Below, in pieces: positions 19 through 22,544 of a DNA stretch of 41,232 nt; positions within the stretch are counted from its first letter, which is position 1; every line of letters starts with the position of its first letter. The notes under the pieces are model-generated. The model saw nothing but the letters and a program-made list of their open reading frames with translations. It searched no databases and was not told the origin of the DNA. This DNA comes from a virus. Taxonomy: Duplodnaviria; Heunggongvirae; Uroviricota; Caudoviricetes. The stretch lies in the IMG/VR virus record IMGVR_UViG_3300028832_002797; one strand, given 5' to 3'. The position numbers were made by a program, and so were the translations under genes.

Positions 19-28
19 ATATGTTTAG

Positions 29-104
29 CTGTTTACAATGGAGTCGAACCAATACCTCTCACCCGCTGCAGCGGGAAGCGCTCTGCCAGTTGAGCTAGTA
101 AACA
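29..104 (-). tRNA. tRNA-like gene with non-canonical anticodon arm (identity undetermined, GCA/Cys-like)
   Basis: Acceptor TGTTTAC/GTAAACA, D-arm GCTC-AACTGGCA-GAGC, T-arm ATTGG-TTCGACT-CCATT; anticodon arm contains the palindrome CCCGCTGCAGCGGG and about 3 extra nt; no CCA. Confidence 0.7.
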
Positions 105-3078: not shown

Positions 3079-3593
3079 TAATCTACCTTTATATTAACGG
3101 TTTTCTCAACATATTCAACATTTGCCTTTTTATAAGCACGATACTTCTTCCAGTAATCCTTTGTATCTTCAAACAATGTATAGTACCAGCCACGTTTGTC
3201 CAATTCAATAAACAATGCATACATTTCTTTTTGGACCTTTTCACCAGCCCAACCCCAACCGCGACGGTTACGATATTTTTCTTCAATGGCATAGACTTTA
3301 TCCCATAGTTCCTTGTCTTTACCAGTCAAGTCTTTAATATAGTACTCTTCTTCATAGTCGGTATTGTGAAATTTGTAATTTACTACAGCACAGATATGAT
3401 GATCATCCATTTCTCGACCATTGTGCTTGTGAACATATCCAAACTGATACCAATAATTTTTCGGTAATGTCGCATCAAAATCCTTCTTAATCGGATTTTC
3501 ATCCATATAATGCTGTGCCGATTTGATAGAAGAATAACCCATGCCCGCTTTGTCTAAGCTAACACCTTTATACATTGGAAAAATACGTTTCAT
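3078..3593 (-). CDS. Hypothetical protein
   Basis: 171-aa ORF with 1-nt stop/start overlaps. Confidence 0.65.
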   Translation of the reverse strand: MKRIFPMYKGVSLDKAGMGYSSIKSAQHYMDENPIKKDFDATLPKNYWYQFGYVHKHNGREMDDHHICAVVNYKFHNTDYEEEYYIKDLTGKDKELWDKVYAIEEKYRNRRGWGWAGEKVQKEMYALFIELDKRGWYYTLFEDTKDYWKKYRAYKKANVEYVEKTVNIKVD

Positions 3594-4783
3594 TAGAAAG
3601 CCGCCTTAAAATTATAAACTGGTTTGATAATCTTTTCGATAGTGCAAGTAGGTTCGATATTCAACATGATTTCTTCCATAGGCTTATAGGCCATAGGGCT
3701 TTCATCGATAGTAGCAGAAGAAACACAAGAAGTGAAAATTCCCTTCATTGCTTCCTTATAGTCCTTCATGGAAATAGAGTTCTTAGCATCAGCACGAGTC
3801 ATTAGACGACCAGCACCGTGAGGAGCAGAATAGTTCCAATCCGGATTTCCCTTACCGACACAAATCAAAGAACCGTCACGCATGTTCATTGGAATGATTA
3901 CACGTTCGCCTTCCTGAGCAGAAATAGAACCTTTGCGGAGAATCATGTTCTTGAGGTCGATATAGTTATGGATAGTTTCGAACTTTTCTGTAACCTTGAA
4001 ACCCATTTCCTTGACGATTACATCAAGCATAGCGGCACGGTTCAAAGCGGCGAACTGTTGGACGATTTCCATATCGTGCAAATAGTTAGCCATGTGCTCG
4101 CCAGTGAGGTAGGAAAGATTCTTAGGAACAGAGAAGTGGTCATAATCCTTCATGAGTTCCTTAATTTCAGCGTCAGTCTTTCCCTGAGCCTTATACTTGG
4201 AGATTTCAGCACCACGAATAGCGGTCAGGTCAGCACAATCCTTGATAGCGAGATTCTGCCAGTATTCACAGGTAGCGACACCTAAATGGCGAGAACCAGA
4301 ATGGATAACGATATAAAAAGCACCATCGTCGTCCTTATCGACTTCGATGAAGTGATTACCACCGCCAAGCGAACCTAAACTCAGAAGTTCTTCACGTCTC
4401 ACGTCAGCAATGAGTTCTTCAAACTTTTCATCGAATTCATTTGCGAAACGGTGACGATTGTTTCTGTGTTCCTTACCAGATGGAATCTTTTCCTTGATAA
4501 CCTTATCAAGTTTACCGAATTCAATAAACTTGTCTTTAAGCTTTGCGACAAGCATCCCGCAACCAATATCAACGCCCACAAGGTTAGGTACAACCTTATC
4601 CTTGATAGTCATAGTGGTTCCGACAGTACAATCCTTGCCCGCATGCACGTCAGGCATGATAGCAACATTAACATCGCGAGCCCAACACTGGCACATCATA
4701 TTCAAAATCTGTGAATATGCCGCATTGTCGATGTTATCTGTAAAAACTTTCGCAGTATTATATTTTCCTTGAATCTCAAGCAT
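3593..4783 (-). CDS. rtcB: RtcB-family RNA 2',3'-cyclic phosphate/5'-OH ligase
   Basis: MPDVHAG, VGVDIGCGM, GSLGGGNHFIEV, IHSGSR, HNY, RKG, SAPHGAGR; start at MLEIQG with AAGGAA RBS. Confidence 0.95.
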   Translation of the reverse strand: MLEIQGKYNTAKVFTDNIDNAAYSQILNMMCQCWARDVNVAIMPDVHAGKDCTVGTTMTIKDKVVPNLVGVDIGCGMLVAKLKDKFIEFGKLDKVIKEKIPSGKEHRNNRHRFANEFDEKFEELIADVRREELLSLGSLGGGNHFIEVDKDDDGAFYIVIHSGSRHLGVATCEYWQNLAIKDCADLTAIRGAEISKYKAQGKTDAEIKELMKDYDHFSVPKNLSYLTGEHMANYLHDMEIVQQFAALNRAAMLDVIVKEMGFKVTEKFETIHNYIDLKNMILRKGSISAQEGERVIIPMNMRDGSLICVGKGNPDWNYSAPHGAGRLMTRADAKNSISMKDYKEAMKGIFTSCVSSATIDESPMAYKPMEEIMLNIEPTCTIEKIIKPVYNFKAAF

Positions 4784-4794
4784 AATTAAATTCC

Positions 4795-5112
4795 TTAATA
4801 ATACGGTACTAAAATTACTTCCGGGCAGAATGTCCAATATGCAACAGATTCCCATTCTTCATGGTCAGAATCCTTATCATAACAAGTATCTTCTACCCAA
4901 GTCCAATCAAAATGTCCATCGTCATAATAAGCCTTACCTACAGCTCTCATTCCATAGGTACCGTCGTTATAAAGCACCCACAACATCGTACCGAGCATTT
5001 CATTAGTAGGTGCATCAAGTCGACGACGCCAACGAGTCAACGGAGTATATATAATCTTATCTTCATCCGTCAAGTTGTCGAGAACTTTCCTGTTAAACTT
5101 ATCGTAAGACAT
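4795..5112 (-). CDS. Hypothetical protein
   Basis: 105-aa ORF in array. Confidence 0.6.
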   Translation of the reverse strand: MSYDKFNRKVLDNLTDEDKIIYTPLTRWRRRLDAPTNEMLGTMLWVLYNDGTYGMRAVGKAYYDDGHFDWTWVEDTCYDKDSDHEEWESVAYWTFCPEVILVPYY

Positions 5113-8054: not shown

Positions 8055-8092
8055 AATATAATAAAAAATACCCGTTTTGTCAACGGGTAATT
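8055..8092 (-). promoter_or_regulatory. Terminator-promoter cassette ending the tRNA cluster
   Basis: Stem TACCCGTT/AACGGGTA plus T6; TTGACA-N17-TATATT; 34 bp identical to 29347-29380. Confidence 0.85.
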
Positions 8093-8096
8093 TTTA

Positions 8097-8168
8097 TAGG
8101 GGCACTGCCACTCGAAGGCAGTTCCATAGGTTAAAAGCCTATTGCTTCACCATCAAAGCTTTACCCCC
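8097..8168 (-). tRNA. tRNA-Lys(UUU), atypical T-stem (C53-G61)
   Basis: GGGGGTA/TGCCCCT; D GCTT/AAGC; ATAGG-CTTTTAA-CCTAT; CTGCC-TTCGAGT-GGCAG; no CCA. Confidence 0.85.
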
Positions 8169-8177
8169 CCATGGTAG

Positions 8178-8265
8178 TTGAGGCGGCTGGATTTGAACCA
8201 GCGATGTGTCGTTAACCGTACAGGATTCAAAGTCCCGCGCCTTCACCGGACTAGGCAACGCCTCA
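8178..8265 (-). tRNA. tRNA-Gln(UUG) with long variable region
   Basis: TGAGGCG/CGCCTCA; CGGGA-CTTTGAA-TCCTG; about 18-nt variable region; GCTGG-TTCAAAT-CCAGC. Confidence 0.85.
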
Positions 8266-8269
8266 ATAG

Positions 8270-8349
8270 TACACCAGGTGGGCTTCGAACCCACATTTGC
8301 AGTTCCAGTTACGGCTAACGGATTAGAAGTCCGACCCGACTACTGGTGT
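8270..8349 (-). tRNA. tRNA-Arg(UCU)-like, D-arm missing, 23-nt variable region
   Basis: ACACCAG/CTGGTGT; 8-nt connector; CGGA-CTTCTAA-TCCG; GTGGG-TTCGAAG-CCCAC. Confidence 0.7.
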
Positions 8350-8356
8350 ATTTCTA

Positions 8357-8442
8357 TCGATGCATATGGAGTCGAACCATCCCGGACCGCCCTGGTGTTT
8401 ACTACGGGCCGGCTTATAAGACCGGTCCAAGGGAATGCATCG
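8357..8442 (-). tRNA. tRNA-Ile(UAU)-like, D-arm missing, 27-nt variable region
   Basis: CGATGCA/TGCATCG; 10-nt connector; CCGGT-CTTATAA-GCCGG; ATGG-TTCGACT-CCAT. Confidence 0.7.
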
Positions 8443-8478
8443 GTTAGTTTGTTTAGAGTGAGTAGCTCTCTCACTTCG

Positions 8479-8553
8479 TGCTGATGGTGGGGCTCGAACC
8501 CACGACTCCCATATTAAAAGTATGGTACTCTGGCCAAACTGAGTTACATCAAC
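8479..8553 (-). tRNA. tRNA-Lys(UUU)
   Basis: GTTGATG/CATCAGC; ACTC/GAGT D-stem; CCATA-CTTTTAA-TATGG; GTGGG-TTCGAGC-CCCAC. Confidence 0.93.
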
Positions 8554-8557
8554 ATTA

Positions 8558-8633
8558 TTGGGGCAGAGAGATTTGAACTCCCGAATAACGGTTTCAGAGA
8601 CCGTTGCCTTAGACCGGACTTGGCGATACCCCA
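8558..8633 (-). tRNA. tRNA-Gln(CUG)
   Basis: TGGGGTA/TGCCCCA; ACGGT-CTCTGAA-ACCGT; GGGAG-TTCAAAT-CTCTC. Confidence 0.93.
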
Positions 8634-8639
8634 GTATAT

Positions 8640-8669
8640 AAAAAGAGTTCCTGTATCGCTACAGGAACT
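8640..8669 (-). terminator. Intrinsic terminator (attenuator 2) 6 nt upstream of the tRNA cluster
   Basis: 10-bp stem AGTTCCTGTA/TACAGGAACT, GCGA tetraloop, then CTTTTT. Confidence 0.85.
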
Positions 8670-8701
8670 TCAAAACCAACATAACAATAGGATCTTGTTC
8701 G

Positions 8702-8773
8702 TTAACCCATAGCAAAACACCAGCATCTCTGCTGTTTTCTTATTTGTTTTACTTGTTTAACGAACCTTAACAT
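8702..8773 (-). CDS. Leader peptide 2, MLRFVKQVKQIRKQQRCWCFAMG
   Basis: AAAGGA RBS; codons 6-16 are AAA CAA GTA AAA CAA ATA AGA AAA CAG CAG AGA, matching the downstream tRNA anticodons. Confidence 0.85.
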   Translation of the reverse strand: MLRFVKQVKQIRKQQRCWCFAMG

Positions 8774-8790
8774 TTCTGTTTTCCTTTGTT

Positions 8791-8825
8791 ATTATATATA
8801 GTTTTTATTTTTCTTTTTTCGCTTT
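8791..8825 (-). promoter_or_regulatory. Class-2 promoter motif AAAGCGAAAA...CTATATATAAT
   Basis: GCG-N23-TATAAT. Confidence 0.7.
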
Positions 8826-8827
8826 AT

Positions 8828-8856
8828 AATATAGCAAAAAGTTTTTCTTTTGTAAA
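8828..8856 (-). promoter_or_regulatory. Sigma70-like promoter TTTACA-N17-TATATT
   Basis: Consensus; TAGGGGTTTACAAAAG is shared with the promoter at 315-343. Confidence 0.8.
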
Positions 8857-14872: not shown

Positions 14873-15167
14873 TGTTGAACGGAGAGATCTAGCCTAGCAG
14901 GAACAACTAGACTAGACACTAACTACTTTTGGCATAAAGCGTCACGTGTCAATCTGGGGGACTTATAAACGCTCTTACGGGTCGGTCATCCTGTACTCCG
15001 GCTATATAGCGTTAGGCCATGGCGGCAAGTGCATAGTTTGCTAAGCTATGCTCGATAATCGAATCGTTTTTGGAATATACCACCGATTTTATGGTATACA
15101 ACGGCTCAGCCTCTACCGATAATGCCATTGGGTTGGATTTCGTTCCGAGGACTAAGGCTCAAATGTC
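14873..15167 (-). ncRNA. Putative structured RNA containing an ssrA-tag-like reading frame
   Basis: About 300 nt with no long ORF, GC-richer than flanks, several hairpins, starts just after a TATATT -10; frame 15012-15128 ends ANYALAAMA*. Confidence 0.5.
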
Positions 15168-18304: not shown

Positions 18305-18330
18305 AATGTATTTCCTTTTTTAAATTTTAA

Positions 18331-18685
18331 TGGACCCGTTGGGAGTCGAACCCAAGTCTTGAATAACTTCAATATCCGTTCCTACAAGCTTTCCCTTCGA
18401 ATTTACTTATTTGTCATACCTATGCCCTGAAGGTCGGCGTCAGTATAAACTAGCCTGTGATTTTCGGAAATAATAGACAGACTTAACTATTTCCTAGCCC
18501 GTTTGCGACTGGACTCTACACTCAACGGGCGAACGGTATAGGTCCAGGGTTGCTATTGATTAAGCAGCCATTGCGTATGTATTAGCAATTATTTTTTTTC
18601 AGACTTTTTAACGTGTGTTTTCCCACGTCTGAGACCACGGCTTGCAACTAATATATTCATCACCCAATCGAAACCAGGCGAGCCC
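18331..18685 (-). ncRNA. ssrA: tmRNA, tag (A)ANTYAMAA
   Basis: Acceptor GGGCTCG/CGGGTCC-A with G3.U70; TGGTTTCGA D-loop; T-arm TTGGG-TTCGACT-CCCAA; tag frame 18560-18586 after ATAATT; no CCA encoded. Confidence 0.93.
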
Positions 18686-21088: not shown

Positions 21089-21415
21089 CTATAATGTTTT
21101 GTTAATCATTTCTTCCATTCTATAGTTATCCATGATTCTATAGGCATGTTCCAGATTTCTTGCACGCATGAAAAGTTCAAAAAACTTATGACGGTCAGGT
21201 ACGATAAGTCTGTTGTTAATAAGTTGATGTTTATCCTTCCACCACCCTTGTGCACATGCTACCATTTGGGTTTCATCCAAAGAAGTTAACCTATAATAAT
21301 CTTTCATGGAATCAGAATAGGTTAATAGCATATCATCTTTTCTATATTTGATATAAATATAATGGAATTCCTTTTCCCATCCATGGGCTTTAAGCTTCTT
21401 ACCTAATCTACTCAT
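21089..21415 (-). CDS. Hypothetical protein
   Basis: 108-aa ORF in array. Confidence 0.55.
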   Translation of the reverse strand: MSRLGKKLKAHGWEKEFHYIYIKYRKDDMLLTYSDSMKDYYRLTSLDETQMVACAQGWWKDKHQLINNRLIVPDRHKFFELFMRARNLEHAYRIMDNYRMEEMINKTL

Positions 21416-22544
21416 TTAATTCCGCCTTATCAAATGTGTGATAATCCTTAAACAGTTTCTTGAATTCGTTCTCGCGGTCCATTTCATCACAGTGAGTAAT
21501 CTCAAGGACATACTTTCCAGAACTCGGACAATTAGCAAAGTCCTTATCGATTCGCTTCTGAAGATTCTTAATGTCCAAATGACCGTACTTGAAGTCACCC
21601 TGGAACTTGTTACGATGGTTCATCAAGTCATCCTGAATATCTCCAGAAATAGTCTTGCGAGCCACTTCATCGAATCGACCAGCACCATGACGGGTCAGAT
21701 ACGGACGGGTCACATAATGAACAGTCAAATCGTTAACAAACTGTAAATCCTGTTTCGAAACCGACTTGACACCTGTGAAAGACGGAGTAGTATGAACATC
21801 CAACGGATTGTCGTTGAGCAACAGTCCTTGACCATTTTCGAAAATATATTCGTCATAACCGGCCGGAATATCGGTAACGAATCTGACATGGTTCAGCATG
21901 AACTTGCAATCTTCAATGAAATGCTTCATTAAACCATCGCTTTCCCAGATTTCCCTTTCCAGCTTACTCATTTCGTACTTGGCCATAATGCCTGTATTCG
22001 GAATGGAATCGAAATACTTAGTATTGAAATAGCTACGTACATATTTCAGGTAGGTTTCCTGGTTAGTCTGGAAATTCCTGGCGAACCTGTCGAATTCCAT
22101 GATAACGCTATTGGTATATCTGGAAACAGTTTCCCAGATACCCATACCGCAAGAGCCATGTTCCTGATGATACTTCTGACGATTCTCTTCAATAACTTGG
22201 TTTGCGATAATGTCAAACGGAGTCGTCCAACGGCAATCCTTATGCATGTATATTTCGCCCATAGACAGCTTCTGGGACAGTTTTTTATATTCCTGTACGA
22301 ACTGCATGGGATTGACAATAAAGTCCTTAGAGAAGTACGTATCAGCCCCAAAACACGTTCCAGAACCGAAGTGCTTGAAAGTATATGCCGTACCGTCCTT
22401 AACGACCGTATGACCACGCTGAGGACCGCCGTTAGTAAGGATATTCAGAACTTTTCCTTCTGCATTCTTGGTATAATAAGCAACGACGGTTCCTTTCGCC
22501 TCATCGCCCCAATTTGCGCCAATAACAATTCTTCCCTTAGCCAT
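21408..22544 (-). CDS. purA: Adenylosuccinate synthetase-like protein (phage short form)
   Basis: GANWGDEAKG, NGGPQRGHTV, GSCGMG, FENGQGLLL, TTPS.TG, YLTRHGAG. Confidence 0.85.
   Translation of the reverse strand: MAKGRIVIGANWGDEAKGTVVAYYTKNAEGKVLNILTNGGPQRGHTVVKDGTAYTFKHFGSGTCFGADTYFSKDFIVNPMQFVQEYKKLSQKLSMGEIYMHKDCRWTTPFDIIANQVIEENRQKYHQEHGSCGMGIWETVSRYTNSVIMEFDRFARNFQTNQETYLKYVRSYFNTKYFDSIPNTGIMAKYEMSKLEREIWESDGLMKHFIEDCKFMLNHVRFVTDIPAGYDEYIFENGQGLLLNDNPLDVHTTPSFTGVKSVSKQDLQFVNDLTVHYVTRPYLTRHGAGRFDEVARKTISGDIQDDLMNHRNKFQGDFKYGHLDIKNLQKRIDKDFANCPSSGKYVLEITHCDEMDRENEFKKLFKDYHTFDKAELNE

Follow-up and report, generated by a model that had tools for sequence, protein, structure and literature searches.

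An 80-nt tRNA-like gene on the minus strand of a phage genome (8349 to 8270) very probably encodes a functional tRNA-Arg(UCU) with a non-cloverleaf core, in which the anticodon arm is nested in the 'D stem'. The gene is located in a 41,232-nt stretch of viral DNA (IMG/VR record IMGVR_UViG_3300028832_002797, Caudoviricetes) that was analysed at its full length and is called the window below. The window is phage-like with nearly all genes on one strand, and its source is considered a rumen-type phage. An initial annotation had interpreted the gene as a D-armless, rearranged tRNA-Arg(UCU) with a D-loop-like sequence relocated 3' of the anticodon arm. As a whole, this interpretation is partly supported. 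Judged by covariation among relatives in viral contigs, the gene is not D-armless: The anticodon arm is enclosed by a D-type helix, with the D-loop sequence shifted to the 3' side of the arm. For the mature RNA, we infer charging by ArgRS, decoding and an L-shape. No paper describing this layout was found in the literature within reach, from which most subscription journals are excluded, nor in PMC7609411 or PMC5389517. The architecture is apparently undescribed, and the window gene apparently a further member of the family that shares it.

The gene at 8270-8349 and its parts

The coordinates of the gene and of the operon that contains it are compiled in Table 1. Strand and borders, the perfect acceptor and T arms, the CUUCUAA loop, the 8-nt connector and the 23-nt variable region had all been given exactly in the initial annotation, as the window sequence confirms. 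The T stem comprises five pairs and carries the loop UUCGAAG. The anticodon stem consists of four Watson-Crick pairs and one U.U, and U33 and A37 are present in the loop with the anticodon UCU. CCA is not encoded after the discriminator. The acceptor and anticodon stems are separated by 8 nt (UAGUCGGG), the anticodon and T stems by 23 nt. The D stem-loop that a cloverleaf has between the acceptor and anticodon stems is absent. Two long-range helices, H1 and H2, are proposed instead. In the window gene, H1 is composed of the pairs U.G, A-U, G-C and U-A, and H2 of C-G, G-C and G-C.

Table 1. Features of the tRNA-like gene and of its operon in the window
Feature	Window coordinates	Strand	RNA nt	Remarks
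Operon	8069..8856	-		Promoter-like site, leader ORF, hairpin, six tRNA genes, terminator-like hairpin
Promoter-like site	8856-8828	-
Leader ORF	8773-8702	-		23 codons
Hairpin	8669-8646	-
Six tRNA genes	8633-8097	-		The gene described here is the fourth
Terminator-like hairpin	8089-8069	-
Acceptor stem, 5' strand	8343..8349	-	1-7	Pairs 7/7 with 8271-8277
Helix H1, 5' strand	8339..8342	-	8-11	UAGU; partner nt 47-50 (ACUG)
Helix H2, 5' strand	8336..8338	-	12-14	CGG; partner nt 36-38 (CCG)
Anticodon arm	8318..8334	-	16-32	Sequence and RF00005 alignment
Anticodon loop	8323-8329	-		CUUCUAA
Anticodon	8325-8327	-		UCU
Helix H2, 3' strand	8312..8314	-	36-38	Family covariation
D-loop-like bulge	8304..8311	-	39-46	UAACUGGA; resembles D loops of ordinary phage tRNA-Arg(UCU)
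Helix H1, 3' strand	8300..8303	-	47-50	Family covariation
Linker	8295..8299	-	51-55	CAAAU, 5 nt; size of a class-I variable loop
T arm	8278..8294	-	56-72	Rfam match and family pairing
Acceptor stem, 3' strand, and discriminator A	8270..8277	-	73-80

ARAGORN did not call the gene in the window. A covariance-model scan had been proposed with the expectation that it would rate the gene as pseudo. The generic Rfam tRNA model RF00005 does accept it with 33.8 bits (gathering threshold 29), though only with the D arm deleted: In the alignment, 15 model positions are reduced to 5 nt, and 20 nt are inserted in the variable region. The proposed fold of the window sequence alone lies 4.9 kcal/mol above the predicted minimum free energy. 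Fold energies above the predicted minimum are common in true tRNAs, too.

Secondary structure of the rewired family

Relatives were collected in two scans of viral contigs. The pattern of the first combined the UCU loop, the motif GUAANUGG and the T loop; it yielded 72 stretches representing 63 distinct sequences of 77-81 nt. Their acceptor stems are perfect in almost all cases and paired at 6-7 of 7 positions in all. The pattern of the second consisted of the bulge, the 3' strand of H1, the linker and the T loop and left the anticodon free. It returned at least 119 stretches with at least 93 distinct sequences. The structure-preserving homologs with compensatory changes that had been named as a check on the initial annotation thus exist: More than 150 distinct relatives with covarying helices were found in viral contigs.

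The 80-nt members align without gaps, so an origin of the covariation from alignment artefacts is unlikely. Covariation was measured on 38 relatives and rechecked on 85 independent sequences among the matches listed, which yielded the same pairing picture. In the set of 38, 93.8% of cells are paired in the proposed structure compared with 63% after shuffling, and sliding the partners by one to three columns reduces pairing to about 40%. In the 38-member alignment, covariation is seen at nearly all pairs of the acceptor, anticodon and T stems, among them all five pairs of the anticodon stem. In the acceptor stem, 7/7 pairs covary in the family, and 95-100% of cells are paired.

Besides these three stems, two long-range helices were found that both enclose the anticodon arm, H1 (nt 8-11/47-50) and H2 (nt 12-14/36-38). 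H1 is paired in 98% of cells (38 relatives) and displays compensatory changes at 10-48 and 11-47. In the 38 relatives, pair 10-48 is GC in 19, AU in 16, CG in 2 and UA in 1, and pair 11-47 is CG in 23, AU in 6 and UA in 6. The corresponding counts for the 85 sequences among the matches listed are GC 44, AU 37, UA 2 and CG 2 for pair 10-48, and CG 58, UA 11, AU 8 and UG 4 for pair 11-47. H2 covaries at 13-37 and 14-36. Pair 13-37 (GC 29, AU 6, CG 2, UA 1 in the 38 relatives) is 100% paired in the family, where all four Watson-Crick types and one G.U are found. Pair 14-36 is weaker: It is paired in 60% and is often A.C or A.A. U8.G50, A9-U49 and C12-G38 are invariant in the family, and their pairing is consistent only; because they do not vary, U8.G50 and A9-U49 might represent tertiary contacts and not helix pairs. 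The 3' strand of H2 is separated from that of H1 by a conserved 8-nt bulge, UAAYUGGA. H1 is followed by the conserved 5-nt linker NAAAU, whose conservation is partly forced by the second search pattern, and then by the T arm. Taken together, covariation shows the secondary structure of the family. The term D-armless holds insofar as no D hairpin precedes the anticodon arm. It fails for the connector, which is one strand of a covarying long-range helix.

Three further pairings were tried and rejected. A D-type hairpin within the variable region, as which the initial annotation had read this segment, is paired in 53% of cells and lacks covariation, so that this part of the earlier reading was abandoned. 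A hairpin GUAAC-UGGA-GUUGC is paired in 63%, rests on invariant bases without covariation and is broken in the window. Pair 15-35 is of a standard type in 10/38 sequences (G.U in 7/38) and reaches 29% in the 85-sequence set compared with 40% after shuffling; hence, it does not exceed shuffles.

The family was defined by the covariance models R1 and R2. A test model built from 32 members, with the window and its near relatives left out, scores the window gene with 89.2 bits (E ~8e-18). The same family model assigns 15-27 bits, typically about 20, to the ordinary tRNAs of the same loci. In addition to this score, the window gene has H1, H2, the bulge UAACUGGA followed by CAAAU, and an arginine anticodon in a 7-nt loop. 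ARAGORN calls overlap only 59/173 members. Annotation tools mostly miss the rewired tRNA-Arg family.

Arginine identity

All 93 distinct sequences among the matches listed in the second scan, in which the anticodon was left free, have arginine anticodons only. The 85 sequences in the 80-nt frame comprise 65 with UCU, 15 with ACG, 4 with UCG and 1 with CCU, and the 8 outside this frame carry UCU, ACG or UCG (all among the matches listed). On single contigs (L016, L080), rewired UCU, CCU, UCG and ACG genes are found side by side. Since these anticodons span two codon boxes and have the amino acid alone in common, the architecture is tied to arginine. One divergent member at L062:4246-4322 (40.8 bits) has the anticodon CAU, which would correspond to Met or Ile2; it is the sole non-arginine case seen. 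Apart from it, the family is restricted to arginine anticodons (among the matches listed).

The bacterial arginine identity set consists of A20 in the D loop, C35, U/G36 and A/G73, with A20 as the main determinant for E. coli ArgRS (PMC9976931). In the family, C35 is present in every member, and the discriminator is A or G in 69/85 (among the matches listed). CCA is encoded directly after the discriminator in 45/85 members (among the matches listed). With a pattern in which the base after UGG was free, this base was A in 68/71 sequences. The ordinary tRNA-Arg(UCU) at L001:9478-9551 has the D loop AACUGGAUA, which is similar to the bulge UAACUGGA. The D-loop-like sequence that had been noticed 3' of the anticodon arm is therefore real: The bulge agrees with D loops seen in ordinary phage tRNA-Arg(UCU) genes. 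The final A of the bulge is likely the equivalent of A20.

Exchange with ordinary tRNA-Arg(UCU) and distribution

Via the adjacent gene for a 146-aa protein, three contigs (L075-L077) were found, the only collinear relatives of the window detected, with 70-87% nucleotide identity over 12 kb. Leader, hairpin, Gln(CUG) gene, UAU element and long-armed UUG tRNA all recur in the L075 operon. Where the window has the rewired gene, L075 contains, between the same two tRNA neighbours, an ordinary 75-nt cloverleaf tRNA-Arg(UCU) (L075:6977-7051). The flanks of L075 and the window are conserved up to the borders of the Arg gene, and none of L075-L077 has the rewired gene there; the ordinary tRNA-Arg(UCU) takes its place. 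Near-identical rewired copies (~94%) are present in L001, L002, L004, L082 and L086, contigs otherwise unrelated to the window. The swap in the same slot and the near-identical copies elsewhere indicate that the gene behaves as an exchangeable cassette standing in for a tRNA-Arg(UCU). By its position, the rewired gene is interchangeable with an ordinary tRNA-Arg(UCU). Together with the covariation and the arginine-restricted anticodons, this substitution supports the earlier reading of a rearranged tRNA-Arg(UCU). At least 10 contigs contain both the rewired and the ordinary tRNA-Arg(UCU) within about 15 kb. This co-occurrence suggests that the rewired form may do more than plain decoding.

In a set of 185,579 prokaryotes with one genome per species, the strict pattern of the first scan was found on only 11 contigs, all metagenome-assembled and from many phyla. 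These contigs are taken to be phage or prophage DNA rather than evidence that the family resides in cellular genomes. Compared with the 72 viral stretches, the 11 prokaryote contigs indicate a phage-associated family. The nearest copies of the window gene are located on contigs of goat-gut metagenome-assembled genomes.

A BLAST search of the window tRNA cluster against cultured phages returned nothing useful. Unannotated members are nevertheless present in Pseudomonas phage PA11 and its relatives as well as in Caulobacter phage phiCbK and 23 related records. The phiCbK member (L170:2501-2580, NC_019405.1 ~52333-52412) has the anticodon ACG, scores 70 bits and fills the tRNA-sized gap between the annotated tRNA-Gln and tRNA-Gly. 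According to its genome paper, phiCbK alone lacks an Arg tRNA among the phages of its group (PMC3556154). In Vibrio phage D260, a member with ACG (L171:1495-1574, 78 bits) occupies a tRNA-sized unannotated gap of the tRNA array. A more divergent, unannotated member with UCU was found in Felix O1 (L290:25951-26029, 44 bits).

Some contigs of the data set contain other unusual tRNA genes. The 548-kb contig L003 has a UCU tRNA-like sequence with an 8-bp anticodon stem and no D arm (L003:93-155). At L005:884-972, a class II UCU tRNA with a normal D arm and a long variable hairpin is located. A suppressor-type tRNA (UUA) was found on a 248-kb phage contig (L002:1103-1175), and the related L001 has a tRNA-Lys(UUU) at that place.

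Operon and genome setting

The rewired gene is separated from the neighbouring tRNA genes by spacers of 4 and 8 nt, which indicates that it has no promoter of its own. The leader ORF contains AGA at codons 12 and 16 and one AGG. The initial annotation had counted two AGA codons in the leader, which is correct, and had used them to argue that the rearrangement matters functionally. They are uninformative on the architecture, since the same leader precedes an operon with an ordinary tRNA-Arg. Among the window genes, AGA accounts for 21% of the arginine codons (94 codons) and AGG for 8%. ARAGORN and an Rfam scan detected no second tRNA-Arg in the window. By sequence, codon use and the absence of another tRNA-Arg fit a supply role.

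AAA, CAA/CAG, AUA and AGA, which are read by the operon's own tRNAs, are abundant in the leader ORF. The hairpin that precedes the array within the region 8646-8856 has 10 bp, is followed by a T run and is located directly before the first tRNA. The leader arrangement and the first 15 residues of the ORF are kept in L075, where the Arg slot contains the ordinary tRNA. The leader region could be a leader-peptide attenuator.

Directly adjoining the rewired gene, a second odd tRNA-like gene was noticed on the minus strand (8358-8442). Its loop is CUUAUAA, and AUA would be the codon read by the resulting anticodon, UAU. The gene combines an acceptor stem of 8 bp with a T stem of 4 bp, lacks a D hairpin and has a stretch of about 27 nt following its anticodon arm. 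Rfam tRNA-Sec matches it with 26.9 bits, below threshold. The gene is kept in L075 (6885-6972), where the changes in acceptor and T stem are fully compensatory. Among 77 UAU tRNAs with long variable regions in viral contigs, this form is confined to the window and close relatives; a normal D arm is common among the remaining ones, together with a second hairpin that has GAU in its loop (often CAGAUUA). The rewired-family model does not match the gene at 8358-8442, which points to a different architecture.

On the other side, an 89-nt tRNA with the anticodon UUG (Gln) and a long variable arm, i.e. class II shape, is encoded on the minus strand (8177-8265). This type is kept beside the rewired tRNA-Arg in L001, L002 and L004 and is also present in L075. 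A class II shape is not expected for a glutamine tRNA. At 28-104 (minus strand), a gene with normal acceptor, D and T arms has a tetraloop hairpin in the place of the anticodon loop and is termed 'tRNA-???' by ARAGORN. The same type is found at L001:5397-5471 on an unrelated phage contig.

The window also encodes an RtcB-type RNA ligase (3593-4855). RtcB-type ligases are a class of enzymes that reseal cleaved tRNAs. Other features are a cow-rumen-2 RNA (14954-15057, 91 bits), a phage-borne tmRNA with the tag ANTYAMAA (18328-18685), a radical-SAM protein and a PurZ-like adenylosuccinate synthetase homologue (21408-22544), which hints at 2-aminoadenine DNA.

Proposed workings of the rewired tRNA

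RNase P, 3' trimming, the CCA-adding enzyme and EF-Tu read mainly the acceptor/T minihelix, and this minihelix is normal in the rewired gene. The six-tRNA operon would be transcribed as a unit, from which host RNase P and 3' trimming would release the tRNA encoded by the fourth gene. In the fold shown by covariation, nt 8-14 lead from the acceptor stem straight into a helix whose partner strand follows after the anticodon arm. The bulge UAACUGGA protrudes from the 3' strand of this helix, followed by the 5-nt linker and an ordinary T arm. H1, H2 and the anticodon stem could stack to about 12 pairs with a small internal loop, approximately the length of a normal D-plus-anticodon stack including its core layers. 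The bulge would then exit the arm near the height at which a D loop usually begins, so that its GG could reach the T loop and form the elbow. The A after GG would be presented to ArgRS like A20, together with C35 and U36. The tRNA is predicted to read AGA and, by wobble, AGG.

Alternative explanations

Four alternatives were weighed against a functional rewired tRNA-Arg(UCU). A decayed tRNA pseudogene that has lost its D arm and gained an insertion would account for the low score of the generic tRNA model (33.8 bits) and the silence of ARAGORN, and the initial annotation had named it as the reading that would follow from a lack of structure-preserving homologs. It is exceedingly improbable, given more than 150 distinct relatives with the same lengths, covariation in every helix including the two new ones, and acceptor stems with 6-7/7 pairs in all relatives. 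A tRNA charged with a non-arginine amino acid, which would recode AGA in phage genes, is very unlikely: An altered core could change synthetase recognition, and one member has a CAU anticodon, but apart from this divergent member all anticodons, of four kinds, are those of arginine, the A20-like base and C35 are kept, and an ordinary tRNA-Arg(UCU) is the positional substitute. Slightly more credit is due to a non-decoding decoy or regulatory tRNA-like RNA, for example one that titrates a nuclease, a synthetase or a sensor of uncharged tRNA. The non-canonical architecture, the co-occurrence with ordinary isoacceptors and the other odd tRNA-like genes at 8358-8442 and 28-104 are in line with this idea. 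A decoy would, however, need neither strict arginine anticodons over two codon boxes (among the matches listed) nor a canonical 7-nt loop with U33 and A37 nor the CCA encoded in half of the members (among the matches listed), and a true tRNA-Arg replaces the gene in the same slot. A pure decoy is unlikely, because the anticodons are those of arginine only (among the matches listed) and the nearest relative has an ordinary tRNA-Arg(UCU) at this position.

The fourth alternative would add to the functional rewired tRNA-Arg(UCU) and does not exclude it. The RNA could be a nuclease-proof spare, a decoding tRNA-Arg whose rewired core would have been selected for its escape from a tRNA-targeting nuclease specific for an ordinary D arm or core. 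The nuclease might be part of a host defence system or serve the phage itself in host shut-off. The presence of both forms within about 15 kb on at least 10 contigs suggests that the rewired one is not simply redundant, copies with ~94% identity occur in unrelated phages as expected for a useful mobile cassette, and the window encodes the RtcB-type RNA ligase (3593-4855). Co-occurrence, cassette-like spread and an RNA-repair ligase make nuclease escape a reasonable idea. On the other hand, the anticodon loop CUUCUAA is ordinary, and a nuclease that recognises the loop only would still cut it; moreover, the ordinary form suffices for the nearest relative, which has it at that position. Such a spare is possible but rather doubtful. 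Equally tentative is a broader proposal, according to which the rewired genes form an arginine-specific non-cloverleaf tRNA class that was born in phages, spread as cassettes and was kept because its core is invisible to a tRNA-targeting nuclease or another host factor and still accepted by ArgRS, EF-Tu and the ribosome. If true, this class would represent a natural, structurally orthogonal tRNA scaffold.

Comparison with known systems and significance

D-armless tRNAs of animal mitochondria such as mt-tRNA-Ser(AGY) and Ascaris mt-tRNA-Ser(UCU) have an unpaired, flexible connector and have lost the elbow elements between GG and the T loop (PMC7609411). They share with the rewired tRNA a short 5' connector, the lack of a D hairpin and an anticodon that reads AGN. 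In the rewired tRNA, by contrast, covariation shows the connector to be paired, and three elements are conserved: GG, the A20-like base and the T loop GGUUCGA. In addition, its identity is Arg instead of Ser, and it is found in phages of bacteria.

tRNA-Sec and allo-tRNAs are characterized by 8/4 and 9/3 (or 9/4) acceptor branches; their D hairpin is normal, and their long variable arm forms a true hairpin (PMC5389517). Like the rewired family, they were mined from metagenomes, occur in part in phages and have extra sequence after the anticodon arm. The rewired tRNA differs from them by its 7/5 split and by the absence of both a D hairpin and a variable hairpin, as the two local hairpin models (53% and 63% paired) showed no covariation. 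It is also distinct from the tRNA-like domain of tmRNA, as it is an 80-nt RNA with an anticodon arm, and the true tmRNA of the window is encoded at 18328-18685.

The closest comparison is that with ordinary tRNA-Arg(UCU) of phages (L075:6977-7051, L001:9478-9551). Common to both are a 7-bp acceptor stem, a 5-bp T stem with GGUUCGA, a 5-bp anticodon stem with the loop CUUCUAA, the D-loop motif AAYUGGA with an A20-type base and a 5-nt stretch before the T stem. Both are located in phage tRNA operons and even in the same slot. In the cloverleaf, the D hairpin closes before the anticodon arm, whereas in the rewired tRNA the D-type loop and the 3' strand follow after it. Consequently, the junction of the rewired tRNA comprises three helices compared with four in the cloverleaf, and it has neither the 8-9 connector nor nucleotide 26.

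Recognition of this family would account for 'missing' Arg tRNAs in phage genomes such as that of phiCbK (PMC3556154), and codon-usage analyses and tRNA counts of phages would be corrected accordingly. Should the rewired core give protection against tRNA-cleaving defences, it would represent a new type of counter-defence. Furthermore, the reading of A20 by ArgRS could be tested on a natural example, and the family might offer a new scaffold for engineered tRNAs. Outside organelles, the cloverleaf is, to our knowledge, regarded as almost universal. A conserved and widespread family in which the same parts are reordered would demonstrate that more than one topology can yield the L-shape.
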